This document shows positions 1 to 39,026 of a DNA stretch of 64,000 bases, in pieces (within the stretch, counting starts at the first letter, position 1; each line of letters starts with the position of its first letter). A model generated the notes under the pieces. The model searched no databases. It was not told where the DNA came from and was given only the letters and a program-made list of their open reading frames with translations. Location of the stretch: positions 170,758-234,757 of the forward strand of contig CAVQUV010000002.1 of the NCBI GenBank assembly GCA_963716855.1. Reading direction: 5' to 3'. A program made the position numbers and the translations under genes. The DNA is from an uncultured beta proteobacterium (GTDB lineage: Bacteria; Pseudomonadota; Gammaproteobacteria; Burkholderiales; SG8-39).

Positions 1-402
1 CTCTGGGGCCGGCCCACGTGGGGGACCTACTGGGTCTGGGACGCGCGGCTGACCTCCGAGCTGATCCTGCTGTTCCTGTACCTCGGCTTCATGGCGCTGC
101 AGGCCGCGATCGACGATCCGCGCCGCGCGGACAAGGCGGGGGCGGTGCTCGCGATCGTGGGCGTGGTGAACGTCCCGATCATCTATTTCTCGGTGAAGTG
201 GTGGAACACGCTGCATCAGGGCGCCTCGGTGAGCCTGACGAAAGCCCCGACGATGGCGAGCACGATGCTGACCGGCATGGCCGTCATGGCGCTCGGCTTC
301 TGGATGTACTCGATCGCCATCACCCTGGCGCGGGTGCGGGCAATCATCCTCGAGCGCGAGCGCCGGTCCGATTGGATCAAGGTACAGGTGGAAAGCAGCT
401 GA
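1..402 (+). CDS. ccmC: Heme exporter protein CcmC, C-terminal part (5' end lies outside the window)
   Basis: Frame 1 is open from the window edge. The translation LWGRPTWGTYWVWDARLTSE carries the CcmC Trp-rich WGxxWxWD heme-handling motif. Stop is TGA 400-402, and ccmDEFGHI follow directly. Confidence 0.9.
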   Translation, partial: LWGRPTWGTYWVWDARLTSELILLFLYLGFMALQAAIDDPRRADKAGAVLAIVGVVNVPIIYFSVKWWNTLHQGASVSLTKAPTMASTMLTGMAVMALGFWMYSIAITLARVRAIILERERRSDWIKVQVESS

Positions 403-403
403 T

Positions 404-583
404 ATGGTCTGGGGCTCCTGGGATAATTTCTGGGCGATGGGCGGCTATGCACCGTTCGTCTGGGGCGCCTACGGCGTGACGGTGGCGGCGCTGGCGATCG
501 AGGTCTGGCTGGTGGGAATCCGGCGGCGCCGGGCGCTTGCCGAAGTGGAGCGGCGCCGCCAGCGCGGCGGAGAGGAACGATGA
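404..583 (+). CDS. ccmD: Heme exporter protein CcmD (59 aa, below the ORF-track size cutoff)
   Basis: ATG at 404, two nt after the ccmC stop. Stop TGA 581-583 overlaps the ccmE ATG at 580 (ATGA). It has one TM helix ([23 protein letters not shown]) followed by an Arg-rich tail, and sits in the canonical position between ccmC and ccmE. Confidence 0.7.
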
Positions 584-1029
584 AACCGAGACAGAAGCGC
601 GCGTTGCTGATCGGCACGGGGCTCGTCATCCTGGCGGGCGCGGTCACGCTCGTGCTCACCGCGTTCCAGCAGAACCTGGTGTTCTTCTTCACGCCGTCGC
701 AGATCGCCGCGAACGAGGCGCCGGTCGGCAAGCCGTTTCGCATCGGCGGCATGGTGGAAGAGGGCAGCCTCAAGCGCGGCGGCGACGGCCTGACGGTGCA
801 GTTCAAGGTCACCGACACGGCGAAGTCGGTCCCGGTGAAGTACACCGGCATCCTTCCCGACCTGTTCAAGGAGGGAAAGGGCGTGGTCGCGCAGGGGCGG
901 CTCGGGCCGGACGGCGTCTTCCAGGCGACCGAGGTGCTCGCGAAGCACGACGAGAACTACATGCCGCCGGAAGCCGCGCACGCGCTCGAGCAGGGCGCGA
1001 AGGCGCAGAAGACGATCAAGTCCAACTGA
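580..1029 (+). CDS. ccmE: Cytochrome c-type biogenesis heme chaperone CcmE
   Basis: 149 aa with an N-terminal membrane anchor and the C-terminal heme-binding motif [12 protein letters not shown] (HxxxY). Lies within the ccm operon. Confidence 0.92.
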
Positions 1030-1039: not shown

Positions 1040-3022
1040 GTGATCCCAGAGATCGGCCAGTTCGCACTCATCCTCGCGCTGCTGCTCGCGCTCGTTCAGG
1101 GCACGCTGCCGATCGCCGGCGCGCACCGCGGCATCGCGGGCTGGACCGCGCTCGCGCGGCCGGTGGCGCAGGGCCAGTTCCTGTTCATCGTGATCGCGTA
1201 CGCGTGCCTCGCGTACTCGTTCGTGAGCAACGACTTCTCGGTGCTGAACGTCGCGTCGCACTCCAACTCGAAGCTCCCGGCGCACTACCGGTTCGCCGCG
1301 AGCTGGGGCTCGCACGAGGGCTCGCTGCTCCTCTGGGTGCTGATGCTCAACGTCTGGACGGTCGCGGTAACGATCTTCAGCCGCCACCTGCCGCAGGAGA
1401 TGGTGGCGCGCGTGGTCGGGGTGATGGGGCTCGTCAGCGTCGGGTTCCTGCTCTTCATGCTCACGACCTCCAATCCGTTCGACCGCCTGTTCCCGGCGGC
1501 GGCCGACGGGCGCGATCTCAACCCGCTGCTGCAGGACCCGGGCATGGTGTTCCACCCGCCGATGCTCTACATGGGCTACGTCGGCTTCTCGGTCGCGTTC
1601 GCGTTCGCGATCTCCGCGCTGCTCGGCGGCCGGCTCGACTCGACCTGGGCGCGGTGGTCGCGGCCGTGGACGACCGCGGCGTGGTGCTTCCTGACGATCG
1701 GCATCATGATCGGGAGCTGGTGGGCCTACTACGAGCTCGGCTGGGGCGGCTGGTGGTTCTGGGACCCGGTCGAGAACGCCTCCTTCATGCCGTGGCTCGT
1801 CGGCACCGCGCTCGTGCACTCGCTCGCCGTCACCGACAAGCGCGGCAGCTTCAAGACCTGGACCGTGCTGCTCGCGATCTGCGCGTTCTCGCTGTCGCTC
1901 CTCGGCACCTTCCTCGTGCGCTCCGGGGTGCTCACCTCGGTGCACGCGTTCGCGACCGACCCGAAGCGCGGCGTCTTCATCCTCGCGTTCCTCGCGCTGG
2001 TGATCGGCGGCTCGCTCGCGCTGTTCGCCGTGCGCGCGCCGCGGGTCGGGCTCGGGGGCAAGTTCGAGATGGTGTCGCGCGAGTCGATGCTGCTCGCGAA
2101 CAACGTGCTGCTCGTCGTCGCGGCCGGCTCGGTGCTGCTCGGCACGCTGTACCCGCTGTTCCTCGACGCGCTGAGTCGCGGCCAGACGAAGATCTCCGTC
2201 GGACCGCCGTACTTCGACGCGGTTTTCGTGCCGATCATGACCCCGCTCGTGTTCCTGATGGGCATCGGCCCGCTCGCGCGCTGGAAGGAAGCCCGGCTGC
2301 CGGACCTGTGGACCCGGCTCAAGTGGGCGCTCGGCGTCAGCCTCGCGACCGCGCTCGTGCTCCCGTTCCTCGCCGGATCCTGGAAGCCGCTCGTGAGCTT
2401 CGGGTTGCTGCTCGCGCTCTGGATCGTTGCGTCGACGGTCGTCCACGTCAGGGAGCGTGTTCGCAACCTGCGCGGCGGGCTCGGCGCGCGGCTCGCGAGC
2501 CAGCCGCGGGGCTACTGGGGCATGCTGCTCGCCCATCTCGGCGTGGCGGTGTTCATCGTCGGGGTGACGCTCGTCAAGGGCTACGAGATCGAGCGCGACG
2601 TCCGCATGGCCGTCGGCGACACGATCAAGGTCGGCAGCTACACGTTCCGCTTCGACGGCGTCCGCGACGTGCCGGGGCCGAACTACGCCGCCTCGCGCGC
2701 GTCGGTCGACGTCAGCAAGGACGGCAAGTCGATCGAGACGCTGCATCCCGAGAAGCGCATCTATTTCGCGCAGCAGATGCCGATGACCGAGGCGGCGATC
2801 GACTCGGGGATCCTCGGCGACATCTACGTCTCGCTCGGCGATCCGGTCGGCGACGGCTCCTGGGCGGTACGCGTCTACGACAAGCCGTTCGTCAACTGGA
2901 TCTGGTTCGGCTGCATCCTGATGGCGATCGGCGGTTTTATCGCGCTGTCGGATCGTCGCTACCGCGTCGGCGCCGCGCGCGAAGCCGTGGTCACGCCCGG
3001 CGCCACGGCGACGGCCGGCTGA
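1040..3022 (+). CDS. ccmF: Cytochrome c heme lyase subunit CcmF
   Basis: 660-aa polytopic membrane protein with the WWD motif GWGGWWFWDPVENAS. Starts at GTG 1040, in ccm context. Confidence 0.93.
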   Translation: MIPEIGQFALILALLLALVQGTLPIAGAHRGIAGWTALARPVAQGQFLFIVIAYACLAYSFVSNDFSVLNVASHSNSKLPAHYRFAASWGSHEGSLLLWVLMLNVWTVAVTIFSRHLPQEMVARVVGVMGLVSVGFLLFMLTTSNPFDRLFPAAADGRDLNPLLQDPGMVFHPPMLYMGYVGFSVAFAFAISALLGGRLDSTWARWSRPWTTAAWCFLTIGIMIGSWWAYYELGWGGWWFWDPVENASFMPWLVGTALVHSLAVTDKRGSFKTWTVLLAICAFSLSLLGTFLVRSGVLTSVHAFATDPKRGVFILAFLALVIGGSLALFAVRAPRVGLGGKFEMVSRESMLLANNVLLVVAAGSVLLGTLYPLFLDALSRGQTKISVGPPYFDAVFVPIMTPLVFLMGIGPLARWKEARLPDLWTRLKWALGVSLATALVLPFLAGSWKPLVSFGLLLALWIVASTVVHVRERVRNLRGGLGARLASQPRGYWGMLLAHLGVAVFIVGVTLVKGYEIERDVRMAVGDTIKVGSYTFRFDGVRDVPGPNYAASRASVDVSKDGKSIETLHPEKRIYFAQQMPMTEAAIDSGILGDIYVSLGDPVGDGSWAVRVYDKPFVNWIWFGCILMAIGGFIALSDRRYRVGAAREAVVTPGATATAG

Positions 3023-3038: not shown

Positions 3039-3566
3039 ATGAGCCGCTTCGCGATCCCGCTCGCCGTATTCGTCGTCCTCCTCGCGTTCCTCTTCGTCGG
3101 GCTCGGCCTCAACCCGCGCGAGGTCCCGTCGCCGCTGATCGGCAAGCCCGCGCCGGCGTTCCAGCTCGCGCAGCTGCACACGCCCGACCGGCCGTTCACC
3201 GAGAAGGACATGCTCGGCCAGGTCTGGCTCCTGAACGTGTGGGCGTCCTGGTGCGTGTCGTGCCGCGACGAGCACCCGCTGCTGGTCGAGCTCGCGAAGG
3301 CGAAGAGCGTGCCGCTGGTCGGCCTCAACTACAAGGACAAGCCGGACGAGGCGAAGGCCTGGTTGAAGCAGTTCGGCGACCCGTATCAGCTGTCGATCAC
3401 CGACCTCAACGGCCGCGTGGGCATCGACTACGGCGTGTACGGCGTGCCCGAGACCTTCCTGATCGACAAGGCCGGGGTGGTCCGCTACAAGCACATCGGC
3501 CCGATCACGCCCGACGCGCTGCAGACGAAGATCCTGCCGCTCGTCAAGGAGCTGCAGAAGTCGTGA
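3039..3566 (+). CDS. ccmG: Thiol:disulfide interchange protein CcmG/DsbE
   Basis: 175 aa with an N-terminal anchor and a thioredoxin fold containing WASWCVSCRDEHP (CxxC). Confidence 0.9.
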   Translation: MSRFAIPLAVFVVLLAFLFVGLGLNPREVPSPLIGKPAPAFQLAQLHTPDRPFTEKDMLGQVWLLNVWASWCVSCRDEHPLLVELAKAKSVPLVGLNYKDKPDEAKAWLKQFGDPYQLSITDLNGRVGIDYGVYGVPETFLIDKAGVVRYKHIGPITPDALQTKILPLVKELQKS

Positions 3567-4027
3567 TGCGGCGCCTTCTCGTGCTCGTCCTGGCGCTCGC
3601 GCCGCTCGTCGCGTTCGCGAAGGACGCGATCCCGACCGAGCAGGACCCGGTCGCGGCGAAGCGCGCGGTCGGCCTGGCCGAGCAGCTCCGCTGCCTCGTC
3701 TGCCAGAACCAGTCGATCGCCGAGTCGAACGCCGAGCTGGCGCTGGACCTGCGCCGGCAGATCAACGAGCAGATCGCCGCGGGCAAGAGCGACGGGGAGA
3801 TCGTCGATTTCATGGTGCAGCGCTACGGCGACTTCGTGCTCTACCGACCGCCGTTCAAGGCGACCACCGTGCTGCTGTGGCTCGGCCCTGCGGTGCTGCT
3901 GCTGCTCGGGTTCTGGACGCTTCGGCGCGCGCTGCGACAGCGCAGGCGCGCGACCGAGGAATTGCCGCTGTCCGAGGACGAGCGGGCGCGCGCCGGGCGG
4001 CTGCTCGGCGGGGAACCGCCGAAGTGA
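3566..4027 (+). CDS. ccmH: Cytochrome c-type biogenesis protein CcmH
   Basis: ATG 3566 overlaps the ccmG stop. It has a signal peptide (MRRLLVLVLALAPLVAFA), the conserved LRCLVCQNQSIAESNA motif and a C-terminal TM helix. Confidence 0.88.
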   Translation: MRRLLVLVLALAPLVAFAKDAIPTEQDPVAAKRAVGLAEQLRCLVCQNQSIAESNAELALDLRRQINEQIAAGKSDGEIVDFMVQRYGDFVLYRPPFKATTVLLWLGPAVLLLLGFWTLRRALRQRRRATEELPLSEDERARAGRLLGGEPPK

Positions 4028-5283
4028 TCGCCTTCGCGCTCGTCGCCACCGCGATGGTGGCCGTCGCGGTGGCGTGGATCCTGGTCCCGCTGCTGCGGCG
4101 TCGCGACGCCGGCGACGTCGATCGCGGTGCGTCCAACGTGGCCATCCTGCGCGACCAGTTCGCCGAGCTCGACGCCGACCTCGAGCGCGGCACGATCTCC
4201 GCCGCGAACCATGAGCAGGCGCGGCGCGAGCTCGAGCGCCGCGTGCTCGAGGAGGTCTCCGGGTCGCCGGGCGCAGCGACCCGGGAGCGCGGCACGCCCT
4301 GGGCCGCCGCCGTGCTCGCCGGCCTCGTCCCGGTCGTGGCGGTGCTGCTGTACCTCGTGATCGGCACGCCGGACGCGCTCGGGCCGCAGGCGCGGGCGCC
4401 CGCCGGCGCGGAGGGCGGGCACCAGGTCACGCGCGAGGAGGTCGAGAAGATGGTCGCCGACCTCGCGGTGCGGCTCGAGAAGGAGCCCGACAACGTGAAC
4501 GGCTGGGTCGTGCTCGCGCGCTCGTACGCCGTCATGAACCGCCATGGCGATGCCGTGAAGGCCTACGAGCGCGTCATCCAGCTCGTGCCGAACGACCCCG
4601 ATCTGCTCGCCGACTATGCCGACACGCTCGCCGTGACGATGGGCGGGAATCTCGCCGGCAAGCCGCTGGAGCTCGCCAAGCGCGCGCTCGCGGCCGATCC
4701 GACCCACTGGAAGGCGCTCGCGCTCGTCGGCACCGAGGCGTTCAACCGGAAGGACTACAAGACCGCCATCGCGTACTGGGAGAAGCTGAAGGCCACCGCG
4801 CCGCCCGGGTCGCCGATCGCGCAGTCGATCGACTCGAGCATCGCGGAGGCGCGCGAGCGGGGCGGAATCAAGGGCGCCGCCGCGCCGCCCGCGGCCGTGG
4901 CCGTCGCGCCGCCTGTGGCGGTCGCCGCCGCGCCCGCGGGGGGCCGCGTCGCCGGCAAGGTCGACCTGAGCCCCGCGCTCAAGGGCAAGGTCGCGCCGAC
5001 CGACACGGTGTTCGTCTTCGCGCGCGCCGCCGCGGGCCCGCGCATGCCGCTCGCGATCCTGCGCAGGCAGGTGAAGGATCTTCCGCTCGAGTTCGCGCTC
5101 GACGACTCGATGGCGATGGCGCCGAACATGTCGCTCTCCAGCTTCCCGGAGGTCGTGGTGGGGGCGCGCGTCTCGCGGTCGGGCAACGCGACGCCGCAGA
5201 GCGGCGACCTCGAAGGCCTGTCGAAGCCGGTCAAGGTCGGCGCGAGCGGAATCGCGGTCGTGATCGACAGCGCGCTCCCCTGA
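4024..5283 (+). CDS. ccmI: Cytochrome c-type biogenesis protein CcmI/CycH (TM + TPR)
   Basis: GTG 4024 overlaps the ccmH stop (GTGA). It has two N-terminal TM helices, a TPR region (WVVLARSYAVMNRHGDAVKAYERVIQL...) and an Ala/Pro-rich linker. It is the last gene of the ccm operon. The start codon was inferred. Confidence 0.8.
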   Translation: MIAFALVATAMVAVAVAWILVPLLRRRDAGDVDRGASNVAILRDQFAELDADLERGTISAANHEQARRELERRVLEEVSGSPGAATRERGTPWAAAVLAGLVPVVAVLLYLVIGTPDALGPQARAPAGAEGGHQVTREEVEKMVADLAVRLEKEPDNVNGWVVLARSYAVMNRHGDAVKAYERVIQLVPNDPDLLADYADTLAVTMGGNLAGKPLELAKRALAADPTHWKALALVGTEAFNRKDYKTAIAYWEKLKATAPPGSPIAQSIDSSIAEARERGGIKGAAAPPAAVAVAPPVAVAAAPAGGRVAGKVDLSPALKGKVAPTDTVFVFARAAAGPRMPLAILRRQVKDLPLEFALDDSMAMAPNMSLSSFPEVVVGARVSRSGNATPQSGDLEGLSKPVKVGASGIAVVIDSALP

Positions 5284-5321
5284 GCGCCCGGCGACGCGGT
5301 CGCCTTGGCGACCGCCGGGTC

Positions 5322-5335
5322 TTGATCTCGATCAA
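5322..5335 (+). promoter_or_regulatory. FNR/Anr/Dnr-type binding site TTGAT-N4-ATCAA
   Basis: TTGATctcgATCAA is a perfect match to the FNR consensus half-sites. Its centre is about 79 nt upstream of the octaheme cytochrome ATG (5408), which fits a class II anaerobic promoter with a ~35-40 nt 5' UTR. Confidence 0.6.
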
Positions 5336-5407
5336 TCGCGGCACCGCGCCTCTCGGGTGAAATGATCCACTGCGGGAAACCGCAGTCTGAGCCCAAGGAG
5401 GGGGAGC

Positions 5408-7120
5408 ATGCCGGATCGCCTGCGTCTCGCGCTCGTGCGCGCCGTTCACGTGGTTTCCGCCGCCGCCTTCGCCGTCGCGGCCTACTTCGCGGTGGCGCCC
5501 ACCGCGCACGCGCAGGCGAAGAAAGCCGCGGCGTTCGATGCCGCGCCATGCCTCGCGTGCCACAAGCCGATCAAGGAATTCCACGACTCCGGCAAGCACA
5601 AGGGCGTCGGGTGCAACGCGTGCCACGGCAACCTCGACTCGCACGTCGCCGACCGGAAGGTGCGCCCGAGCACCAACATGGACCCGGCCGCCTGCGGCGC
5701 GTGCCACAAGCTGCAATACGAGAGCCAGTTCACGATGAACTGGGAGAAGCCCGCGCGCTGGGAGAAATCGCAGCAGGTCGGCCCGTCGCCGAACCCGTCG
5801 TGGGAAAAGCTGATGTGGCCGCACGGGTTCACGCGCGAGCACAACCTCGCGCGGTCGCACCAGCACATGGTGCTCGACCAGTTCGTCGTGGATCGCGCCT
5901 TCGGCGGCCGGTTCGAGGCGAAGCAGGGCTGGCAGTACCTCACGCGGCAAGGCAACTACAAGGTCTGGGACGTTCTGAAGGACAACTACCCGGACAACAC
6001 CGACCAGAAGGTCTTCAAGCCCGGCACCGCCGCCGCCGCCAACCCGGTGTGCATGAGCTGCAAGACGCAGGACCACATCCTCGACTGGGCCTACATGGGC
6101 GATCCGGCGCCGACGGCGAAGTGGAGCCGCACCTCCAAAGTGGTCGAATTCGTGAAGGACGTGAACCACGCGATGAACTGCTTCTTCTGCCACGACCCGC
6201 ACGCCGCCAAGCCGCGGGTCGTCCGCGACGCCCTCATCCAGGCGCTGACGCGCCCCGAGAAGGACACCCTGTGGCATCAGGACGCGCGCGCCGGGAAGAT
6301 CGAGGTGAAGGACCTCGGCGTGCGCGGCCACACGCGCAAGATCGCGATGCTCGACCGCTACGACACGAAGCTCCAGTGCGGCCAGTGCCACGTCGAGTAC
6401 AACTGCAACCCCGGCACCGATCCGACCACCGGACAGCCGATCGGGATGGCCGACCAGCGGGCGAACCACTTCCCGTTCAAGAGCGTGAACGAGATCGGCA
6501 AGCACTACACCGACCTCAAGTTCCGCGACTTCCGGCACCAGATCACCGGGGCGCTGCTCTGGAAGGGCCAGCATCCGGACGTCGAGAACTACTACGGCTC
6601 GAAGCACCAGAAGGCCGGCGTCGAGTGCCACCAGTGCCACATGCCGAAGATGAAGGACGCCAAGACCGGCAAGACCTACACGTCGCACTGGCAAACCTCG
6701 CCGAAGCACTACGTCAAGGAGACTTGCCTGCAGTGCCACGGCGAGTGGACGGAGCGGCAGGCGAAGTACGTGATGGAGTCGCTCAGCGCGCGCATCCAGG
6801 GCAAGACGCGCAAGGCCGAGTACTGGCTCACGCGCATGATCGACAAGTTCGAGGAGGCCAAGGGCCTCGGCGTGGACGAGGCGACGCTCAACCAGGTGCG
6901 CGAGAAGCACTACGAGGCGGACATCCACTGGGAGTGGTGGACCGCCTCCAACGGCGCGGCCTTCCACAATCCGGACCAGACGACCGAGTCGCTCGCGAAG
7001 TCGGTGACGCTGTCGCAGGAGGGGATCAAGCTCCTCGACGATGCGATGGCGAAGCGCCGCTCGGAGCAGCGGAGCGCCGCGGCCGCGCCTGCGCCGGGTG
7101 CGGCGCCGAAGCCGAACTAG
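5408..7120 (+). CDS. Octaheme cytochrome c nitrite reductase family protein (TvNiR/ONR type, CxxCK catalytic heme)
   Basis: 570 aa with a signal peptide and eight heme-c motifs: CLACH, CNACH, CGACH, CMSCK (nt 6050-6064), CFFCH, CGQCH, CHQCH, CLQCH. It also has an NrfA-like CGQCHVEYNCNPG segment. Confidence 0.85.
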   Translation: MPDRLRLALVRAVHVVSAAAFAVAAYFAVAPTAHAQAKKAAAFDAAPCLACHKPIKEFHDSGKHKGVGCNACHGNLDSHVADRKVRPSTNMDPAACGACHKLQYESQFTMNWEKPARWEKSQQVGPSPNPSWEKLMWPHGFTREHNLARSHQHMVLDQFVVDRAFGGRFEAKQGWQYLTRQGNYKVWDVLKDNYPDNTDQKVFKPGTAAAANPVCMSCKTQDHILDWAYMGDPAPTAKWSRTSKVVEFVKDVNHAMNCFFCHDPHAAKPRVVRDALIQALTRPEKDTLWHQDARAGKIEVKDLGVRGHTRKIAMLDRYDTKLQCGQCHVEYNCNPGTDPTTGQPIGMADQRANHFPFKSVNEIGKHYTDLKFRDFRHQITGALLWKGQHPDVENYYGSKHQKAGVECHQCHMPKMKDAKTGKTYTSHWQTSPKHYVKETCLQCHGEWTERQAKYVMESLSARIQGKTRKAEYWLTRMIDKFEEAKGLGVDEATLNQVREKHYEADIHWEWWTASNGAAFHNPDQTTESLAKSVTLSQEGIKLLDDAMAKRRSEQRSAAAAPAPGAAPKPN

Positions 7121-7136
7121 CCGGCCGGGCGCTCGA

Positions 7137-7712
7137 ATGAGGGCCGCGTACCTCGCATCCGGTGTCGCGATCGTCGGCGTGGCGATCGCCACCGCGATCC
7201 TCGTCGTCGTCGTCCCGGATGCGGATGCACCCGACTCCGGTGCGCTTCCCGTGACGCGCGATGCGCTCAAGTCGCACGTCGAGCGCGCGCCGCGCGACGG
7301 TCGAGCCTGGGTGATGCTCGCGCGCGCGGAGCTCGATGCCGATCGCTTCCGCGAGGCGGCCGACGCGTACGAGCGCGGACTCGCGACCTCGCGCAAGGTC
7401 GCGCTGGATGCCGCAGTCTGGTGCGAGTACGCCGATGCGCTCGGCATGGCGCAGGGCGGCCGTCTCGAGGGACGGCCCCGCGAGCTGATCGAGCGCGCCC
7501 TCGCGCTGAACCCGGCGCATCCGAAGGCGCTGGAGATGGCCGGAAGCGCGGCCTATGAACGCGGCGATTTCGCCGCCGCCGCACGCCACTGGAAGGCGTT
7601 GCTGGCGCAGCTCGCGGCGGACTCGCACGCGCACGGCGAGCTCGCGGCGGCGGTCGCACGCGCCGAACGCAAGGCCACCGGCCGCGCGCCGCTGACCGAC
7701 CGGGCCGGGTAA
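7137..7712 (+). CDS. TM-anchored TPR protein, paralog of the CcmI TPR module (NrfG-like apocytochrome chaperone candidate)
   Basis: ATG 7137 (internal Met of ORF 7041..7712) lies 16 nt after the cytochrome stop. It has an N-terminal TM helix, then TPR repeats that align by eye with the C-terminal TPR region of CcmI (4024..5283). Confidence 0.65.
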   Translation: MRAAYLASGVAIVGVAIATAILVVVVPDADAPDSGALPVTRDALKSHVERAPRDGRAWVMLARAELDADRFREAADAYERGLATSRKVALDAAVWCEYADALGMAQGGRLEGRPRELIERALALNPAHPKALEMAGSAAYERGDFAAAARHWKALLAQLAADSHAHGELAAAVARAERKATGRAPLTDRAG

Positions 7713-7732
7713 TCGTCCGGTCTCGCGACCCC

Positions 7733-9134
7733 GTGGAGCGCGTCGACGTCGTTGTCGTCGGCGCGGGCATCTCCGGCCTCGCGACGGCCTTCCATCTGCA
7801 GCGCCGCGGCCACGCGGTGCGCGTGCTCGAGGCCGCGCCGCGCGCCGGCGGCGTGATCGGCTCGCACCGCCGCGACGGCGTCCTGTACGAGACCGGACCC
7901 AACAGCACGCTCGACACCACCCCGCTGATCGGCGCGCTGCTCGATGCGGCGGGAATCGCGGCCGAGCGTCTCGACGCGACCGCCGCTGCGGCCCGGCGCT
8001 ACGTGCTCCGAGGGGGGCGCCTCGCGCCATTGCCGACCTCGCCCGGAGCGTTCCTCGCGACGCCGCTCTTCTCCATCGGCGCGAAGCTCGCGCTCGCGCG
8101 CGAGCCGTTCATCGCGCCGGCACCGCCCGACCGCGAGGAAACGGTCGCCGCCTTCGTCCGCCGGCGGCTGGGCGACGAGTTTCTCGACTATGCGATCGAG
8201 CCGTTCGTCGCCGGCATCTACGCCGGTGACCCCGACCAGCTTTCGGTGCAGGCGGCGTTTCCGAGACTGCACGCGCTCGAGCAGCGCTATCGCAGCCTGA
8301 TCCGCGGGCAGATCCTCGGCGCGCGCGAGCGTGCGCGCGCGCGACGAGACGGCAAGGAACACCGCGACGAGCTTCTCGTTCCAGAACGGCATGCAGACCC
8401 TCCCCGACGCGCTCGCGCGCACGTTGCGCGGGCTCGAGACGGGCGTTCGCGTCGTACGCCTGGCGCGCGCCGATGACGGCACGTTCACCGTGCACGGCGA
8501 GCGGACCGGCGAATCCACGGAGGCGCGCGCGCGCGCGGTCGTGCTCGCCGTGCCTGCGGACGCGGCCGCCGGCCTCGTGCGTCGGCTGGCGCCGGCCGCG
8601 GCGCAGGCGCTCGACGCGATTCCGTATTCGCCGGTTGCCGTCGTTGCGTCGGTCTACCGCCGCGCGGACGTGCGGCACGCGCTCGACGGCTTCGGCTTCC
8701 TTTCGCCCCGCAAGGAGGGCAGGGCGATCCTCGGCACGCTGTTCTCGAGCAGCATGTTCGAGGGACGGGTCCCGGCGGACACCGTGCTGCTGACGACCTT
8801 CGTCGGCGGGGCCCGCGATCCTGCGCTCGCGGGGTCGCCTCCCGGCGAGATTGCGGCGGCGGTGGAGCGCGAGCTCGCGGCGCTCCTCGGCGCCGCGTCG
8901 CCGCAGTGGCGCGAAGTGGTCCAGTGGCCGCGTGCGATCCCGCAGTACACGCTCGGGCATCTCGGCCGCATCGCCGCGCTCGAAGCGAGCGAGGCCGCCG
9001 TGCCGGGACTCTTCTTCCGCGGGAACTACCGCGGCGGCGTATCGGTGGGCGATTGCATCAAGTCCGCCGACGCAGGCGCCGCGGCCGTGGCGGCGTTCCT
9101 CGCGGCCTATCCGTCGCGCAGCGCGACGCGATAG
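7733..9134 (+). pseudogene. hemY: Protoporphyrinogen oxidase HemY (FAD amine-oxidase fold), reading frame broken by a +1 shift near 8320-8375
   Basis: The N-terminal part is in frame 2 (VDVVVVGAGISGLATAFHL dinucleotide-binding motif ... AFPRLHALEQRYRSLIRG). The remainder is in frame 3 (SFSFQNGMQTLPDAL ... WPRAIPQYTLGH ... FRGNYRGGVSVGDCI). Together they make one full-length HemY. Confidence 0.8.
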
Positions 9135-9925
9135 ATCAGGAAGTAGATCGCGGCGACGAATGCCGCGCCGCCGACGATGTTGCCGAGCGTCACGGGCACG
9201 AGGTTGTGCAGCAGCCCGGACCAGTCGAGGGCCGCCGCCTGCGGCACGGCGCTCCCGGCGCTGCCTTTCAGCAGGAGGCCGAGCGGGATGAGGTACATGT
9301 TCGCGACGCAGTGCTCGAACCCCGCGGCGACGAAGGCCGAGATCGGGAAGACGATGGCGAGGATCTTGTCGGTGACCGAGCGGCCCGCGAGCGAGATCCA
9401 GACCGCCAGGCAGACGAGCAGGTTGCACAGCACGCCCTTCATGAACGCTTCCCAGAACGGCAGGGCCGCTTTGGCCGCCGCGATCTTCACGTACTGCGCG
9501 CCGATCAGCCCGCCGTTCGACGCCGCATGGTCGGCGAGGTAGACGACCAGTGCCAGTCCGGCCGCGCCGACGGCGTTCCCGACGTAGACGATCGCCCAGT
9601 TGCGCGCGAGCTCGGACGTCGAGATCCGTCGGCTCGCCCAGGCCATCACCATCAGGTTGTTGCCGGTGAAGAGCTCCGCGCCCGCGACGACCACCAGCAC
9701 CAGTCCGAGCGAGAACACCACGCCGCCGAGCACGCGTGCGGTCGCGAAGGACAGCGCGGGATCGGCGGTCACGACCACCGAGTAGAGCGCGCCGAGCCCG
9801 ATGAAGCCGCCGGCGCACACCGCGAGCATGAAGACGGCCAGGAAGGGCAGGCGCACCTTGGTCACGCCGACCGACTCGACTTTCTCGGCGATCTGCTTCG
9901 GCGAGTAGGGGTCGAGCTCGAACAT
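9107..9925 (-). CDS. Formate/nitrite transporter family channel (FocA/NirC type)
   Basis: 272 aa starting MFELDPYSPKQIAEKV, with six TM helices and FNT signatures (GAELFTGN, FEHCVANM). It is the C-terminal part of ORF 9107..11356. The ATG overlaps the upstream stop codon (TGATG). Confidence 0.88.
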   Translation of the reverse strand: MFELDPYSPKQIAEKVESVGVTKVRLPFLAVFMLAVCAGGFIGLGALYSVVVTADPALSFATARVLGGVVFSLGLVLVVVAGAELFTGNNLMVMAWASRRISTSELARNWAIVYVGNAVGAAGLALVVYLADHAASNGGLIGAQYVKIAAAKAALPFWEAFMKGVLCNLLVCLAVWISLAGRSVTDKILAIVFPISAFVAAGFEHCVANMYLIPLGLLLKGSAGSAVPQAAALDWSGLLHNLVPVTLGNIVGGAAFVAAIYFLIYRVALRDG

Positions 9926-11463
9926 CAGTCGCCCTCGCGCCCGAGCGCGGCGCGCAGCTCGGTCTTGAGCACCTTGCCGTAGTTGTTCTTCGGCAGGCTC
10001 GCGACGAAGCGATACGACTTCGGGCGCTTGAACCGCGCGATGTTGTCGAGGCAAAGCGAATCGAGCTCCGCGGCGCTCGGCGCGGCGCCCGCGCGGCGGA
10101 ACGACGAACGCCACGACCTCCTCGCCCCACTCGGGGTGCGGCCGGCCGACGACCGAGACCTCGTGCACGCCGGGATGGCGGAGCAGCACCTCCTCGACCT
10201 CGCGCGGATAGATGTTCGAGCCGCCGCTGATGATCAGGTCCTTCGAGCGGTCCATCAGCGTGAGGAATCCGTCCTCGTCCACGGCGCCGACATCGCCGGT
10301 GTGGAGCCAGCCGCCGCGCAGCGTCGCGGCCGTGGCCTCCGGATTGCGCCAGTAGCCCTTCATCACCACGTCGCCGCGCACGAGGACCTCGCCGGGCTCG
10401 CCGGGCGGGAGCGGTCGATCCTGCGCCGTCCGCGACGCGCACCTCGACGCAGGACTGCGCGACGCCGACCGAAGCGAGCCGCTGCGCGTGGCGCGGGTGA
10501 CCCCCGTCGCCATGGTGATGCCGCGACGAGCGCAGCGATGGTCATCGGGCACTCGCCCTGACCGTAGATCTGGACGAAGCGCTGACCCATGACCGCGATG
10601 GCGTCCTGGACGTCGGCGAGATACATCGGGCCGCCGCCGTAGACGACGGTCTTGAGCCCGCCGAGCGCGGGCCGCGCGGCGCGCGCGTGATCGACGAGGC
10701 GCTTGACCATCGTCGGCGCGGCGAACATCGCCATGCCCGGCCACGCCCGGGCGAGCGAGAAGATCTCCGCCGGCTCGAACCCCCCGCTCTCCGGGATGAC
10801 CTGCAGCGCCGCCGCGGCGACGTGCGGCGGCCCGTAGATGCCGGATCCGTGCGACATCGGCGCGGCGTGGACGATCGAGTCCCCGTGCCCGATCGCGTCG
10901 ACGTCGGCGAAGTAGCAGAGCGTCATCGCGAGCAGATTGCGGTGGGTGAGCATCACGCCCTTCGGCCGGCCGGTCGTGCCGCTCGTGTAGAAGAGCCAGG
11001 CGAGATCGTCCGGCGCGGCCTCGGCCAGGGCGAGCTCGGAGTCGAGGGCGAAGGCGCGGTACTCGTCGCTCTCGACCGCGATCGTGCGCGCCAGCCCCGG
11101 GACGCTCGCGGCGAGCGCGCCGATCGCCTGCGCGTGATCGGCATCGACGAAGCACGCGCGCGCGCCCGAGTGGTCGAGGATGTACTCGGCTTCCTTCGGG
11201 TGGAGCTTGGCGTTGATCGGCACGATCGCGAGGCCTGCCCACCATGCGGCCCACGTCAGCTCGACATAGGCCGGGCAGTTCGACATGAACAGCGCGATCC
11301 GGTCGCCCGGGGCGAGCCGGAGCCGCGCGCGCAGCGCGGCGCCGAGGCGCGCGCACGTGCGCGCGAGACCGCGATAGTCGGCGAGAGCCCGCTCCCCGAG
11401 CGCGAGCGCCGGCGCGTCGGGAAAGACGCGTCCGGCGCGCGCGAGCAGGCCCGCCAGGTTCAC
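9925..11463 (-). pseudogene. AMP-dependent acyl-CoA synthetase/ligase interrupted by three +1 frameshifts
   Basis: The N-terminal part in ORF 10363..11463 has the AMP motif LFYTSGTTGRPKGVMLTH and reads on to IYGQGECPMTIAAL. It continues in a second frame (SRHHHGDGGHPRHAQRLASVGVAQSCVEVRVADG). A third frame follows (QDRPLPPGEPGEVLVRGDVVMKGYW...WLHTGDVG...GGSNIYPREVE...EEVVAFVV). It then returns to the first frame (RRAGAAPSAAELDSLCLDNIARFKRPKSYRFVASLPKNNYGKVLK). The shifts lie at about nt 10525, 10420 and 10097. Confidence 0.8.
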
Positions 11464-11878
11464 GGCGCTGCGAGGAAAGCGGCGATCGGCTTTGCCGCGA
11501 GACCGATCTGCGTGACGCCGTCGATGTGCCCGCCGTCGGTCGGGATCTCGAAGTACTCGACCGCGTTGCCCTGCTTGCGCAGCGTGTCGGCGAGCACGAG
11601 GCCGACGGCGGCCCGCAGCACGGACCGGATGCTTCGCTTCATGGGTGCTTGCCCCCTCATTGGCGGCGCGCGGGAATCGGCGCCCGGGGGCGATTGTAGT
11701 GGGCGCCGCGCACGGCGGCGTCGATCAGGCGGGGAAGCGCAGGTTCCCCGGAACGCGCTGGATGGGGCCGGAGGCGGCCGGGAGGAGGAGGAGGGAGGAG
11801 GGTCCCGGCCGCTCCCCGACACCCGATCCAGCGCGGGGGGAATCGTCTGGCCGGCCCGCATTCCGGGCCGGCGCTGGT

Positions 11879-12479: not shown

Positions 12480-13415
12480 GTGGAGCTTTACCAGTTGCGC
12501 GGCTTTGTCGTCGTGGCCGAGGTCGGCAACCTGACCCGGGCCGCCGAGCGGCTGCACCTCAGCCAGCCGGCGCTGAGCGCCCAGATCAAGGCGCTCGAGG
12601 ACGAGCTCGGGGTGGTGCTCTTCGACCGGATCTCCAGCGGGATGCAGCTGACGGTCGGGGGGCGCCGGCTGCTGGCGGAGGCCGAGAAGGTGCTCGCGGC
12701 GGCCCAGTCCGTGAGCGCCGCGGCGCGCGTGCTCAAGGGCGAAGTTGCGGCCCGGGCACGGATCGGCACGGTCTCCGACCCCGAGTTCATCCGCGTCGGG
12801 GCGCTCCTGAACGCCGCGATGGAACGCTACCCGCTCCTCCAGATCGAGCTCCATCAGGCGGTCAGCGGCGAGGCTTTCGAGCAGGTGCGCCAGGGCGAGC
12901 TCGACGCGAGCTTCTATTTCGGGACGCTCGCGCATCCGACGATGGCCGGCCTGCGGCTGGGGGAGATGGCCTATCGGGTCGTGGCGCCGGCGCAGTGGTG
13001 CGACCGGATCGCGGCGGCGGGCTGGGCGGAACTCGCCGCGATGCCGTGGATCATGACTCCGTCGATCAGCACCCACAACCAGCTGGTCAGCGAGCTCTTC
13101 GCCGGGCACGCCCCGGCGCCGGCCAAAGTGGTCGTGGCCGACCAGGAGTCCCTCATCAGCGAGCTCGTCGGCGCGGGTGTCGGGGTGGCGCTCATGCGCG
13201 AGGACCTCGCCCTCGAGAAGGTCGCGGCGGGCGAGGCGTGCCTGTGGCGCGAGCTCCGCGTCACGACGACGCTGTGGTTCGTCTACCTCGCGGAGCGCGC
13301 GCACGATCCCGCGATCGCGGCGCTGCTCGACGTGCTGCGCGACCTGTGGGGCGTGACCGCGGCGGCGGAGCCGCGGGTCAGCCGCGGCCGGCGAGCTTCG
13401 CGTTCGCCTGCGTGA
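12480..13415 (+). CDS. LysR-family transcriptional regulator
   Basis: 311 aa with an N-terminal wHTH ([47 protein letters not shown]) and a periplasmic-binding-fold effector domain. Confidence 0.9.
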
Positions 13416-14673
13416 GGCGATCGATCAGCACCCGCATGAACGCCTTCTGGAAGTTCACCTGGCAGGTCGAGCTGGCCACACGGAGCGCGATCGACTTGAT
13501 CTCGATGACGGTGATGTCGTTGAGCGCCTTGATGCTCGTCGTCCGCTGCGTGACGCGATCGTTGAAGTAGAGCAGCTCGCCGAAGCAGCCGGCGCGGCGG
13601 ATGGTGTTGATCGAGGTGCCGCCGATCGACACGTCGACCTCGCCCTCGATCAGCAGGAAGAAGCTCTCGCCGTGGTCGCCCTCGCGGATGATCACCGTAT
13701 TGCGCGGAATCTCGCGCCAGTGGCTGATGCGCAGCGCCTCCCACAGGGTCGCGTCGTCGAAGTCCTCGAAGAACGACAGGTTCTTCAGCTCGGCGAACTT
13801 CGCCGAGTCCGAGATCGATTCGCCGGCGAGTCGCAGGGCGCCGAACGCCTTGGAGAGGTCCTTGCCGAAATCGATCCAGCTCTGGTAGCGGTTCGCCGAG
13901 TTCTTCTGCATCGCCTTGAGGCAGATCTCGTCGAGCAGGGCCGGCAGCTCCGGCCGCAGCTGCGACGGCGGCGGCGGCGTGACGTTCAGGATCTCGTAGG
14001 TGAGCGAGAGCTGGTTGGACGCGTTGAACGGCAGCCGCCCGGTGAGCAGCTTGTACATCACCACGCCGAGCGAGTAGATGTCGGTGTGATGGGTGATGTC
14101 CTCGAGCCGGATCTGCTCGGGCGACATGTACGCGGGCGAGCCGATCCCGGTGAGCTGCGTGGTGTCCTGCGCGAGCTGCTCCTGGAACGAGGCGCCGAAG
14201 TCGCTGACCTTGATCTCGCCTTCCGGGCTGTAGAGGAGGTTGCCGGGCTTGATGTCGCGGTGGATCACACCCAACTGGAACGCGTAATCGAGCGCCCGGA
14301 TGCACTTGAAGATCACCTCGACCACCTTCGACAGCGGCAGCAGGCTGTCGATCTCGCTGTAGGTCTCGAGGGTGGTGCCCCGGACGTACTCCATGACGAT
14401 GTAGCTGTACTCGGGCTCGCTGACGGCGTCGAAGATCTCGACGATGTGCGGGTGGTTCAGCCGTCCGGCGAGCGCCGCCTCGGCGAGGAAGCCCTTGCGC
14501 AGCAGCTTCGCGGTCTGCTCGCTGACGCTCTCCTCGAAGAAGAACACCTTGATCGCGACGTCGCGGTCGGCGAACGGGTCGCGTCCGAGGTAGACGCGGC
14601 TGGTGGCGCCCCGCCCGATCTCCTGCTTGATCGGGTACTTGCCGATGCGCCATTCGAGCTCGAACTTCATCAT
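13378..14673 (-). CDS. Hanks-type Ser/Thr protein kinase fused to a C-terminal cyclic-nucleotide-binding domain
   Basis: 431 aa. The kinase domain has GRGATSRVY...[17 protein letters not shown] and [10 protein letters not shown]. The cNMP domain shows FFEDF...[19 protein letters not shown]...GCFGELLYF...RTTSIKA (phosphate-binding cassette). Confidence 0.85.
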
Positions 14674-14748
14674 TTCGAAGGATTTTTTCGTCGACCGGCA
14701 AGTTTATCGCAAGCTCGCGGGCCGGCCCATTGACCACGCGCGGCAAGG

Positions 14749-22700: not shown

Positions 22701-23184
22701 ATGAAGCGGGTCATCGAAGTCACGATCAACGGCGAGCGCCAGGCGCTGGCGCTCGAGCCCTACCGCAGCCTGCTCGACGTGCTGCGGAACGAGGTCGGGC
22801 TCACCGGCACGAAGAAGGGCTGCGACGTCGGCGACTGCGGCGCGTGCACCGTGCTGCTCGACGGCAAGCCGGTCAACTCGTGCCTCGTGCTCGGCGTCGA
22901 GGTCGGCGGCTGCGAGCGTCGTGACGATCGAGGGCCTCCAGCCCGACCCGGAGCGCCTGCACCCGCTGCAGGAGAGCTTCATGAAGCACGGCGGCGCGCA
23001 GTGCGGGTTCTGCACGCCGGGCTTCATCATGATGGCGAAGGCGCTGCTCGACGAGAATCCCGACCCGACCGAGGACGAGATCCGCTTCGGCATCGCGGGG
23101 AACATCTGCCGCTGCACCGGCTACACGAAGATCGTGACGGCGATCCAGGCGGCCGCGAAGGAACTCGCGGAGGCAAAGCCGTGA
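22701..23184 (+). pseudogene. Molybdenum hydroxylase [2Fe-2S] (small, CoxS-like) subunit, copy 1, with a +1 shift near nt 22917
   Basis: The N-terminal half is in frame 3 ([33 protein letters not shown]). The C-terminal half is in frame 1 ([10 protein letters not shown]...[16 protein letters not shown]...[15 protein letters not shown] 22921..23184). Confidence 0.85.
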
Positions 23185-25499
23185 GCATCGTAGGAAGCGC
23201 GATCGCAGGAAACGCGATCGTAGGAAACGCGATCGTAGGAACCAGCGTCAAGCGCACCGACCTGATCGGCAAGGTCACCGGCACCGCGCAGTACGCGGGC
23301 GACGTGAAGCTCGCCGGCATGCTGCACGGGAAGATCAAGCGCAGCAACATCGCGCATGCCAACATCAAACGCATCGACGTCAGCCGGGCGCGCGCGTTTC
23401 CCGGCGTGAAGGCGGTGCTGACGCACGAGAACGTGCCGCGCGTGCTGCACTACGGCTCGCCGCATCCGCGCTCGGCCTCGGTCACGTGCGATCAGTACAT
23501 CCTCGACCGGAAGGTGCGCTACTGGGGCGAGGGCGTCGCCGCCGTCGCGGCGGTGAGCGAGGAGATCGCCGAGGAGGCGCTCGACCTGATCGACGTCGAG
23601 TACGAGCCGCTGCCCGCCGTCTTCACCGTGGAGGCGGCGCAGGCCCCCGGCGCGCCGGTCATTCATGAGACCGGATACGCGAACAACCTGCTCTTCAAGC
23701 CGATCGTGGTCGCGCGCGGCGATGTCGCGAACGGTTTCGCGCAGGCCGATCTGATCCTCGAGGGCGAATACGAGACCGGACGCCCGACGCCGGCATACAT
23801 GGAGCCGAACGTCTGCGTGTGCCAGTGGGACAACACCGGCAAGCTCACGGTGTGGGTCTCGACCCAGACCGCGTTCATGGTGCGCGGGATCCTCGCCGAG
23901 GTGCTCGGCCTGCCGCTCAACAAAGTGCGGGTGCTCGTGGACCACATGGGCGGCGGCTTCGGCGCGAAGCAGGACCTCTTCCAGCACGAGTTCCTGTGCG
24001 CGCTGCTCGCAAAGGAGACCCGTCATCCGGTGCGGATGGAATTCACGCGCGGCGAGACGTTCGTCGGCGGGCGCTCGCGTCACCCCTGCAAGATCTGGCT
24101 CAAGCAGGGCTTCAGGAAGGACGGCACGATCGTCGCGCGCCAGGCGCGCATGACCTACAACAGCGGCGCATACGGCTCGCACGGACCGGGCGTCACCATC
24201 GTCGGCACGAGCGCGCTCACCTCGCTCTATCGCTGCGAGAACGTCCACCTCGAAGGGCGTTGCGTCTATACGAACACGCCGATCGCGGGTGCCTACCGCG
24301 GCTACGGCGTGGTGCAGACCTACTACGCGCTCGACATCCAGATGGACGAGGCCGCCGCCCGGCTCGGCATGGATCCCGTCGCGCTCAAGCTCAAGAACGC
24401 GGTGCGCGAGGGCGACCTGGCGCCGTCCGGCCACCCGATCGTCGGGCATGGCCTCGAGGACTGCATCCGGCGCGGCGCGCAGGAGACCGGCTGGGAGGCG
24501 CTGCGCCGGCGGCCGCGCGAGTCGGGCGGCACGCTGCGCCGCGGCTGGGGCATGGGCTGCGAGATGCACGGCTCCAGCGCCTACCCCGGCATCAAGGAGC
24601 AGGGCAACGCAATCGTGAAGATGAACGAGGACGGCACCGCCGTCCTCCTGACCGGCGCCGCCGGCCTGGGCACCGGGGCGCACACCGCGCTCGCGCAGAT
24701 CGTCGCCGAGGAGCTGGGGCTGCGCTTCGACGACATCGCCGTCGTCCACGGCGACACCGACATCGTGCCGTGGGACATCGGCGCGTTTGCGAGCCACACC
24801 ACGTTCATGGTGGGGCGCGCGGCGCAGATGGCGGCAGCCGAGGTGAAGAAACAGCTCCTCGCCCGCGCGGGGGAGCAGCTCGAAGTGGCGCCCGAGGATC
24901 TCGAGATCCGCGACAGCGTGATCGCGGTGCGCGGGGTCGCCGGCAAGGGCATGACCGTGCGCGAATCGATGGGTCCGAAGCCCGGCATCCCGGCGGCGAA
25001 CCTGCTGGGCAACGGGACCTACACGCCGACCAAGTCGTACTCGTTCGCCGCGCATTTCGTGGAGGTGCAGGTCGACACCGGGACCGGGCAGATCGACGTG
25101 CTGCAAGTCGTCCCGGTGCACGAGATCGGCAAGGTCGTGCATCCGGTCGCGGCCGCCGGCCAGATCGAAGGCGGGATCCAGCAAGGCATCGGCCACACGC
25201 TCACGGAGGAATACGTCGTCGATCTCACCAACGGCCGCTCGCTCAACGCCGGGTTCGTCGACTACAAGATGCCGCTGTCGATGGACATGCCGCCGATCAG
25301 GACGATCATCCTGGAGACCGCCCCGGATCCCGGCGGACCCTACGGGGCCAAGGGCCTCGGCGAGGATCCGATCATCGCCATCGGCCCCGCGATCGCCAAC
25401 GCCGTGCACGCCGCGATCGGCGTGCGCTTCCGCCATTTCCCGATCACGCCGGAGCAGGTGCTCGCGGCACTGAAGGACCCGTCGAATGCAGATGCCTGA
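23181..25499 (+). CDS. Molybdenum hydroxylase molybdopterin-binding (large, CoxL-like) subunit, copy 1
   Basis: GTG 23181 overlaps the small-subunit stop. 772 aa with [19 protein letters not shown], the active-site loop [14 protein letters not shown] and [18 protein letters not shown]. It lacks the CODH VAYRCSFR loop. Confidence 0.9.
23184..23243 (+). repeat. Four tandem 15-bp in-frame repeats at the 5' end of the large-subunit gene
   Basis: agcatcgtaggaagc / gcgatcgcaggaaac / gcgatcgtaggaaac / gcgatcgtaggaacc, encoding [20 protein letters not shown]. Confidence 0.75.
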
Positions 25500-37612: not shown

Positions 37613-37616
37613 CGGG

Positions 37617-38999: not shown

Positions 39000-39026
39000 A
39001 TCGCTCGTCGCCCGGCGCCGCGCGGA

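Follow-up and report, generated by a model that had tools for sequence, protein, structure and literature searches.

A predicted TvNiR-type octaheme nitrite reductase gene between a ccm operon and a CcmI-type TPR gene in an uncultured betaproteobacterium

The window analyzed here is a 64-kb stretch of DNA (69% GC) from an uncultured betaproteobacterium, contig CAVQUV010000002.1; all coordinates are window positions. Directly behind a ccm operon for cytochrome c maturation it carries a gene, onr, whose product is a member of a known, structurally characterized family, the octaheme cytochrome c nitrite reductases (ONRs), and brings no new chemistry. Taken as a whole, the reading that onr encodes a periplasmic enzyme of the family of TvNiR, the eight-heme nitrite reductase of Thioalkalivibrio nitratireducens, with the maturation, regulation and mechanism proposed in the last section, is considered highly probable. 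The pairing of onr with a TPR gene, its repeated linkage to heme lyase genes and the FNR-type box in front of it come as a modest surprise; nothing known is overturned.

The ONR protein and its family

Heme-binding motifs were located by a regular-expression scan for C..C[HK] in the translated gene. Exactly eight were found, seven CXXCH and one CXXCK: C48LACH, C69NACH, C96GACH, C215MSCK, C258FFCH, C324GQCH, C407HQCH and C440LQCH. Translation and scan agree on this point with a first-pass annotation, made from the letters of the sequence, which had placed the same motifs in a protein of 570 residues, with the CXXCK at nt 6050-6064. The Tyr-x-Cys pair that it had read at nt 6398-6406, Y331 and C333, is also present, in the segment CGQCHVEYNCNPG, which begins at residue 324. 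The protein contains 17 cysteines, and C333 is the sole one outside the heme motifs. When all stop-to-stop open reading frames (ORFs) of at least 50 aa were scanned in the six frames of the 64 kb, no second CXXCH-bearing ORF was found, so that the cluster of heme motifs in onr is not a product of chance. The GC content at third codon positions (GC3) of onr is 0.95, as for coding sequence in a window of this composition.

Proteins were named by Pfam and NCBIfam profile scans, by phmmer searches against the PDB and by Foldseek comparisons with an AlphaFold model. Pfam assigns residues 98-554 of ONR to Cytochrom_C552 (E 3e-50) and residues 47-107 to c3/c7-type multiheme models. The best phmmer matches in the PDB are the eight-heme nitrite reductases of T. 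nitratireducens and T. paradoxus (TvNiR and TvPaR; 2ot4, 2zo5, 3sxq), with E 9e-155 to 2e-151 over residues 43-548, the TvNiR entries 2zo5 and 2ot4 giving E 9e-155 and 519 bits; the ONR of Trichlorobacter ammonificans (8rv0) matches with E 1e-144. Foldseek retrieves ONR structures over the full length, with E about 1e-32 to 1e-30 and TM scores of 0.69-0.78. The octaheme architecture of TvNiR type, as first suggested from the heme motifs, is thus recovered by a full-length match. Both T. ammonificans ONR and T. lovleyi NrfA-3 belong to the same family as the window protein.

In order to compare individual residues, the TvNiR chain was rebuilt from the phmmer alignment, its index reproducing the literature numbering R131, K188, Y303, C305 and H361. 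The two proteins are 49.5% identical over 499 aligned positions. Their eight heme motifs pair one-to-one, and the order of the motifs, with CXXCK at heme 4, is that of TvNiR and TvPaR, to which the window protein is collinear over residues 43-548. Residues R131, K188, E302, Y303, C305, K358, Q360 and H361 of TvNiR correspond to R163, K219, E330, Y331, C333, K386, Q388 and H389, respectively, and the Arg, the Tyr-x-Cys, the His and the calcium-site residues are identical in all these enzymes. K219, Y331 and C333, whose superposition on the TvNiR catalytic residues had been set in advance as a check, sit in ungapped blocks identical to TvNiR (CxxCKTQDHILDWAYMGD and QCHVEYNCNPG). The calcium-site residues E330, K386 and Q388 we take to be ligands, as in the structures of NrfA and TvNiR. 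In an alignment of the window ONR with 39 relatives at 66-95% identity, no variation is seen at any of the eight mapped catalytic or calcium residues or of the heme-motif residues.

Seven CXXCH and one CXXCK, together with an active-site Tyr, Arg and Cys, have been described as the mark of the family (PMC5433712), the order being three CXXCH, one CXXCK and four CXXCH, with a His between motifs six and seven; all ONRs are reported to be calcium-dependent (PMC10716430). The published sequence features, namely the motif order, the Tyr, Arg and Cys, and the His between motifs 6 and 7, are all found in the window protein. A Sec-type signal peptide was called by inspection of the N-terminus; the predicted cleavage falls 7 residues before the start of the TvNiR chain alignment, and the same layout is common to ONR relatives despite differing sequences. 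Unlike TvNiR, the window protein continues past the last helix for about 20 residues, in a C-terminal tail rich in Ala and Pro. The hosts differ as well, a high-GC betaproteobacterial lineage here and haloalkaliphilic sulfur oxidisers for TvNiR and TvPaR.

The first-pass annotation had overrated the rarity of this architecture by tying it to Thioalkalivibrio: the family is not confined to that genus, has thousands of members in the databases, and is already named by annotation pipelines. Of the candidates scored in a word-indexed protein search with the window ONR, 1,735 reached E<=1e-10, and identities to it within the top 120 are 68-95%; a TvNiR-seeded search returned a further 2,305 at E<=1e-30. 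Many relatives are deposited as 'formate-dependent nitrite reductase cytochrome c552 subunit' or 'ammonia-forming cytochrome c nitrite reductase subunit c552'. In a scan with each species represented by a single genome, at least 592 onr loci were confirmed. The best 80 of these (ONR identity 59-79%) are almost all from betaproteobacterial, Burkholderiales, Rubrivivax or Ramlibacter metagenome-assembled genomes (MAGs); among the matches listed, the closest species-level relatives are Burkholderiaceae or Burkholderiales MAGs, at no more than 79% identity. A 2021 screen of about one million assemblies had reported 106 non-redundant onr sequences, mostly from Gammaproteobacteria (in the GTDB sense) and Desulfuromonadia (PMC10716430). 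An exact-sequence look-up found no record of the window ONR; the closest public copy, 95% identical, is encoded on a JGI metagenome contig of 10.7 kb whose gene order matches that of the window (L081). One MAG contig (L026) holds two tandem onr copies behind ccmGHI (3154-4725 and 5030-6547), 68% and 74% identical to the query.

Lyase genes, TPR gene and promoter region

The position directly behind the ccm operon, noticed in the first pass, was confirmed: a partial ccmC and the genes from ccmD to ccmI precede onr, overlapping or nearly abutting, and the ccmI stop at 5283 lies 124 nt before the onr ATG. That annotation had seen the ccm linkage, and had missed an NrfG-like gene, hemY and the FNR-type box. 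The window ccmF scores above the cutoff of the general family model and reaches 744 bits with the NrfE-specific TIGR03145, under its cutoff of 927.

Gene order was compared in the 80 related loci. The full ccm operon is found upstream of onr in 18/52 of them. A lone CcmF/NrfE-family gene precedes onr in 7/52, and follows the TPR gene in one more (L065); for these lone lyase genes the NCBIfam models fail to tell NrfE from CcmF. In a contig of the TvNiR clade, with an ONR 87% identical to TvNiR, a CcmF/NrfE-type gene comes directly after onr while fccAB lie upstream, in divergent orientation, so that the arrangement fccAB / onr / ccmF-like stands against ccm-onr-TPR-hemY of the window. A Thiobacillaceae contig shows the order fccA-fccB-onr-ccmABCDEFGHI. 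That onr occurs beside System I lyase genes in no fewer than four arrangements, in different clades, speaks for a functional link, for which heme attachment at the atypical CXXCK would be the obvious candidate, judging from synteny and paralogy. The genes fccAB (flavocytochrome c sulfide dehydrogenase) and lyase genes stand beside onr in L082 (4289-6196, 9053-9694) and L084 (4938-6849, 8889-15719); the presence of fccAB suggests that sulfide and ONR may be connected in sulfur oxidisers.

The gene following onr, here called TPR2, encodes a paralog of the second transmembrane segment and TPR part of CcmI, without the N-terminal and the Ig-like C-terminal domains of the latter; a BLASTP alignment with residues 95-279 of the window CcmI gives 34% identity (E 2e-24). 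It is 73.8% identical to its L081 counterpart at the protein level. A same-strand TPR gene comes right after onr in 67/69 related loci with room for it. In E. coli, the CcmI paralog NrfG is needed, with NrfE and NrfF, for attachment of the heme at the CXXCK of NrfA (PMC12285233). NrfEFG (PMC12285233) and Shewanella SirEFG/SirG (PMC6976685) are thus precedents for lyase parts dedicated to atypical heme sites.

The window shares with the E. coli-type NrfA/NrfEFG system a homologous CXXCK catalytic domain, a CcmI-paralog TPR gene beside the reductase and a CRP/FNR-family box (PMC12285233), and differs from it in the three extra N-terminal hemes, in the lack of nrfB, nrfCD and nrfH and of a separate NrfE or NrfF copy, and in a TPR2 that scores under the NrfG cutoff. 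Since no separate NrfE or NrfF is encoded in the window, the general ccmF and ccmH upstream presumably serve. With Shewanella oneidensis SirA and SirEFG/SirG it has in common an octaheme reductase with one atypical heme site and adjoining CcmF-, CcmH- and CcmI-like parts (PMC6976685); SirA is, however, of MccA type, with a CX12NKGCH site and another substrate, and in the window only the TPR chaperone is duplicated.

Further downstream lies a hemY-type protoporphyrinogen oxidase gene, fitting the heme demand of an eight-heme protein and found within 3 kb downstream of onr in 24/60 related loci. In the window it is split by a 1-bp insertion near 8344, in a GC-repeat stretch, as seen by alignment to L081, where hemY is an intact gene for 460 aa.

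The gap between ccmI and onr contains the CRP/FNR-family box TTGATCTCGATCAA, the sole site in the 64 kb with no more than one mismatch; about 4e-4 such matches would be expected in a gap of 124 nt. The pattern TTGAYN4RTCAA is found within 300 nt upstream of onr in 62/77 evaluable related loci. These 62 sites are 62 of the 73 occurrences of the pattern in 1.1 Mb of locus sequence, of which the searched regions make up 2%. From this conservation, onr is predicted to have a conserved promoter of its own, one that would depend on an FNR-family regulator and not on whatever lies upstream. A candidate -10 hexamer follows 22 nt after the box, and GAAATT- or GAAACT-like elements occur at similar spacing in L001, L003, L004, L008 and L012. 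The box would be centred near -41.5 with respect to a transcription start predicted near 5370, a class II geometry. A consensus promoter scan of 5000-9300 found no canonical sigma-70 promoter, and two minus-strand terminator-like matches inside onr are at chance level. A perfect stem-loop, nearly identical in L081 (CTGCGGGAAACCGCAA), stands where the 5' end of the onr mRNA is predicted. The box predicts that onr would be induced under anoxia, or by nitric oxide (NO) if the regulator were of Dnr/NnrR type.

Electron donor, neighbouring genes and sequence quality

As the first-pass annotation had stated for donors of the NrfB, NrfH and NrfCD types, none is encoded in the window: profile and heme-motif scans of the 64 kb found no nap, nar, nir, formate dehydrogenase, NrfB, NrfH, NrfC or NrfD gene. 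The T. lovleyi ONR gene lies directly downstream of nap (PMC11972089), and a passage of the same paper reports that T. ammonificans ONR works with Nap; the window has no nap. Among the 80 related loci, no generally conserved gene for a c-type cytochrome donor was found within about 8 kb of onr. Candidates were seen in two loci of Rubrivivax type. In L062 (9435-13074), two genes come after onr and the TPR gene. The first encodes 723 aa, with 11 CXXCH motifs joined to a membrane domain of cytochrome b561 type, the second a NapC/NirT-like protein of 476 aa and five hemes; the two might form a quinol dehydrogenase dedicated to ONR. In L076 (11511-15081), a pair of ORFs matching these in length and number of motifs (700 aa and 11, 483 aa and 5) lies about 1.3 kb after the TPR gene. 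Fusion and pentaheme genes of the L062 type are absent from the window.

The features of the region are collected in Table 1.

Table 1. Features of the onr region, with window coordinates, strand and supporting evidence.
Feature	Position	Strand	Description and evidence
ccmC, 3' part	1-402	+	Runs off window start; Pfam Cytochrom_C_asm E 2e-20; collinear with L081 ccm operon
ccmD	404-583	+	Pfam CcmD E 5e-16
ccmE, heme chaperone	580-1029	+	Pfam CcmE E 3e-39; 96.0% aa identity to L081
ccmF, CcmF/NrfE-family heme lyase subunit	1040-3022	+	Pfam CcmF_C E 4e-137; TIGR00353 780 bits, above cutoff
ccmG/dsbE, thiol:disulfide oxidoreductase	3039-3566	+	TIGR00385 dsbE 179 bits, above cutoff; Pfam Redoxin
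ccmH, LRCxxCQ thiol reductant, CcmH/NrfF family	3563-4027	+	LRCLVCQ in translation; NrfF model E 3e-35, below cutoff; L081 ortholog with Pfam CcmH
ccmI, apocytochrome chaperone	4024-5283	+	N-terminal membrane, TPR and Ig-like domains; TIGR03142 101.8 bits, above cutoff; Pfam TPR_CcmH_CycH, Ig_CycH
CRP/FNR-family box TTGATCTCGATCAA	5322-5335	.	Perfect TTGAT-N4-ATCAA palindrome in 124-nt ccmI-onr gap
Candidate -10 hexamer TGAAAT	5358-5363	+	22 nt after box; read from sequence
Stem-loop CTGCGG-GAAA-CCGCAG	5370-5385	+	Perfect 6-bp stem; predicted 5' end of onr mRNA
Ribosome-binding site AAGGAGGG	5395-5402	+	Read from sequence; 5 nt before ATG at 5408
onr, octaheme cytochrome c nitrite reductase	5408-7120	+	570 aa + stop, no interruption; N-terminal triheme domain, then NrfA-like pentaheme catalytic domain
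Sec-type signal peptide, ONR residues 1-35	5408-5512	+	MPDRLRLALVRAVHVVSAAAFAVAAYFAVAPTAHA then QAKK; charged, hydrophobic, AXA (Ala-His-Ala) layout
R163, catalytic Arg	5894-5896	+	Aligns with TvNiR R131 in VVDRAxGGRF
C215MSCK, catalytic heme-4 motif	6050-6064	+	K219 aligns with TvNiR K188, proximal ligand
E330-Y331-N332-C333	6395-6406	+	Calcium ligand, catalytic Tyr, Cys partner of predicted Tyr-Cys cross-link; align with TvNiR E302, Y303, C305
K386-G-Q388-H389	6563-6574	+	Calcium-site residues and catalytic His, between heme motifs 6 and 7; align with TvNiR K358, Q360, H361
NrfG-like gene (TPR2), 191 aa	7137-7712	+	N-terminal hydrophobic membrane anchor and CcmI-type TPR; Pfam TPR_CcmH_CycH E 3e-15; 16 nt after onr stop
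hemY-type protoporphyrinogen oxidase	7733-9134	+	Two frames (7733-8329, 8358-9134); TIGR00562 180.7 and 153 bits vs cutoff 97.85
FocA-like formate/nitrite-family channel	9113-9925	-	Convergent with onr-TPR-hemY; Pfam Form_Nir_trans E 1e-75; NCBIfam FocA 244 vs NirC 103 bits

Whether the FocA-like channel gene belongs to the onr module was judged from its occurrence: L081, the 95% relative, has it, but 0/80 of the more distant loci do, and it is therefore treated as a neighbour only. The rest of the window encodes a LysR regulator, a Ser/Thr kinase, clpB, ABC transporters, xanthine-dehydrogenase-type molybdoenzymes, UbiD-family enzymes, fatty-acid oxidation genes and gyrA. The kinase, at 13381-14688 (-), is fused to a cyclic-nucleotide-binding domain and adjoins the LysR regulator and a small DUF3563 gene. 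A region at 33664-36214, with a GC3 of 0.75-0.78, under that of its neighbours, contains an NMT1-GGDEF protein and a fragment matching the OB domain of type VI secretion system or phage baseplates (Phage_base_V). The stretches 36278-40891 (-) and 42380-43559 (-) contain two UbiD-family decarboxylase genes, arranged in tandem with Amidohydro_2 genes, and, apart from these, a tandem pair of AlgH-like (DUF179) paralogs.

In addition to hemY, several genes of the window show frame breaks. The acyl-CoA synthetase (AMP-binding) gene, at about 9925-11620 (-), falls into three frame segments; two 1-bp insertions, at about 10423 and 10527, are not compensated, and the open frame of the FocA-like gene downstream also covers the AMP-binding_C domain. 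An extra C in GAG[C]ATCGCG is the apparent cause of a frame switch in clpB at 17133. The Fer2_2 domain of the xanthine-dehydrogenase-type gene at 22918-23211 is out of frame, and the LamB/YcsF gene is split at about 55689 (profile positions 149/153). A possible break near 40173 in an Amidohydro_2 gene was signalled by a frame switch in coding score, the short segment having no Pfam match. Single-base indels in housekeeping genes such as clpB look like assembly errors more than decay.

Proposed mechanism, alternatives and significance

According to the mechanism proposed, ONR would be exported by the Sec pathway and would then receive its eight hemes from System I (Ccm). The mature enzyme would hold seven bis-His hemes and one Lys-ligated catalytic heme, heme 4, with K219 as ligand and a free distal site. 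Here nitrite would undergo six-electron reduction to ammonium, aided by Y331 (cross-linked to C333), H389, R163 and Ca2+. Electrons would enter through the N-terminal triheme domain and the chain of bis-His hemes, from a donor encoded elsewhere, most likely a generic c-type cytochrome of the periplasm that takes its electrons from the quinol pool. The gene would be transcribed together with TPR2 from its own promoter, activated by a CRP/FNR-family regulator, and TPR2 would most likely present apo-ONR to the housekeeping CcmFH lyase for attachment of the CXXCK heme.

A number of points weigh against this picture. The activity and the heme content of ONR are predicted from homology, and so are the Lys ligation, the Tyr-Cys bond, the calcium binding and the hexameric state. 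The AlphaFold model, built from the alignment with the 39 relatives, has a mean confidence score (pLDDT) of 69.8, falling below 50 near residues 204-243, 257-273 and 329-333, although a moderate score is nothing exceptional for multiheme proteins when they are modelled without cofactors. Being poor at the active site, the model was used for fold ranking, where the order of the Foldseek matches is nonetheless unambiguous, and residue correspondence rests on the sequence alignment. The best NCBIfam match of TPR2 is NrfG, with E 5e-6 and 26.3 bits against a cutoff of 306, so that TPR2 should be regarded as NrfG-like in architecture and context, not as an NrfG ortholog; its role in ONR maturation is suggested by paralogy and synteny. 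Within the window, the FNR-type box is a single match where 0.23 would be expected anywhere in the 64 kb, and its weight comes from position and conservation. Both the regulator of onr and the electron donor are absent from the 64-kb window. Finally, the frame breaks in other genes raise a concern about sequence quality or decay, onr itself being intact.

As for the identity of the protein, family placement was judged by the gaps in bit score and fold score between ONR and NrfA, Otr, MccA or HAO. A pentaheme NrfA with an unrelated N-terminal cytochrome extension would agree with the label 'cytochrome c552 nitrite reductase', given by pipelines to the relatives, and with the Pfam Cytochrom_C552 match. 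There is hardly any likelihood of this: the NrfA equivalog models NF008339 and TIGR03152 give 111 and 92 bits, so far below their cutoffs of 595 and 692.5 that ONR is not an NrfA, and the motifs are eight, not five. By phmmer, moreover, NrfA structures match only the C-terminal half, about residues 314-550 (E 1e-25 to 1e-13; at most 93 bits, over residues 321-546), and by Foldseek they reach about 1e-9, whereas the triheme part is collinear with TvNiR from residue 43. The chances of another octaheme family, be it Otr, the MccA/SirA sulfite reductases or reductive HAO, are next to nil, even if these proteins carry as many hemes and share, distantly, the multiheme scaffold (PMC9250108). Placement with Otr or MccA had been named in advance as the outcome that would speak against an ONR; no Otr, MccA or HAO chain in the PDB gave a phmmer match at E<=1, the Foldseek comparison with MccA stops at E 0.7 and TM 0.14, and the window protein has a CXXCK, which Otr, MccA and HAO lack. 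In HAO the catalytic heme, too, is bound by a CXXCH. All eight motifs of Otr are CXXCH (PMC12285233), and the enzymes of the MccA family use a long CXnCH site (PMC6976685). It is also very unlikely that onr is a decaying relic, as the frame breaks in hemY, clpB and the acyl-CoA synthetase, LamB/YcsF and xanthine-dehydrogenase-type genes might suggest: the gene is uninterrupted and keeps all functional residues, its identity to L081 is 94.6% in protein against 92.4% in DNA, second only to ccmE (96.0%) within the cluster, and breaks of the clpB type suggest single-base assembly errors.

The role of the enzyme and of its neighbours leaves more room for doubt. A real ONR could serve to detoxify or scavenge nitrite, hydroxylamine, NO, sulfite or peroxide, instead of energy-conserving ammonification, an alternative that we hold unlikely but take seriously. 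In vitro, TvNiR acts as a reductase of hydroxylamine, sulfite and H2O2 as well (PMC5433712), nap, nar, fdh, nrfH and nrfBCD are missing from the 64 kb, and most of the 80 loci have no conserved donor near onr; on the other hand, T. ammonificans ONR is reported, in a passage of PMC11972089 citing Sorokin 2023, as the sole nitrite reductase in the dissimilatory reduction of nitrate to ammonium, and FNR-type promoters are typical of respiratory reductases, though compatible with detoxification too. It is rather improbable that the ccm position and TPR2 are incidental, TPR2 being a generic TPR protein or a redundant copy of CcmI. Besides the weak NrfG match, this would agree with the designed consensus TPR proteins that rank top in the PDB search, where NrfG 2e2e (E 0.004) is among the best natural matches, and with a full ccm operon in only a minority of the loci; S. 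oneidensis, moreover, matures the CXXCK of NrfA with the general CcmI (PMC12285233, PMC6976685). However, nearly all loci have the TPR gene behind onr in the same orientation, whatever lies upstream, with a gap of just 16 nt here, the product of TPR2 is a membrane-anchored TPR protein specifically of CcmI type, and the link between onr and lyase genes recurs in different arrangements across clades.

The reading preferred here is thus a TvNiR-family nitrite reductase with a TPR partner. ONRs are a less studied sister group of NrfA, and the class converts nitrite to ammonium, so that nitrogen is retained and not lost as gas. What is added here is that onr is common in betaproteobacterial MAGs, with at least 592 species-level genomes against the 106 non-redundant sequences of the 2021 screen, and that it travels with a CcmI/NrfG-like gene and a CRP/FNR-type box, without a canonical Nrf donor. 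We tentatively propose, at somewhat less than even confidence, that ONR maturation may need its own apocytochrome chaperone, a TPR protein adapting the housekeeping CcmFH lyase to CXXCK. With the FNR-type box this would make a self-contained, anaerobically induced onr-onrG module, and the reservoir of nitrite ammonifiers would be larger than the 106 onr sequences indicate. If true, a TPR chaperone dedicated to CXXCK would explain why onr is tethered to lyase genes in so many arrangements, and the onr-onrG module would be widespread among those Burkholderiales in which onr has no Nrf-type quinol dehydrogenase next to it.

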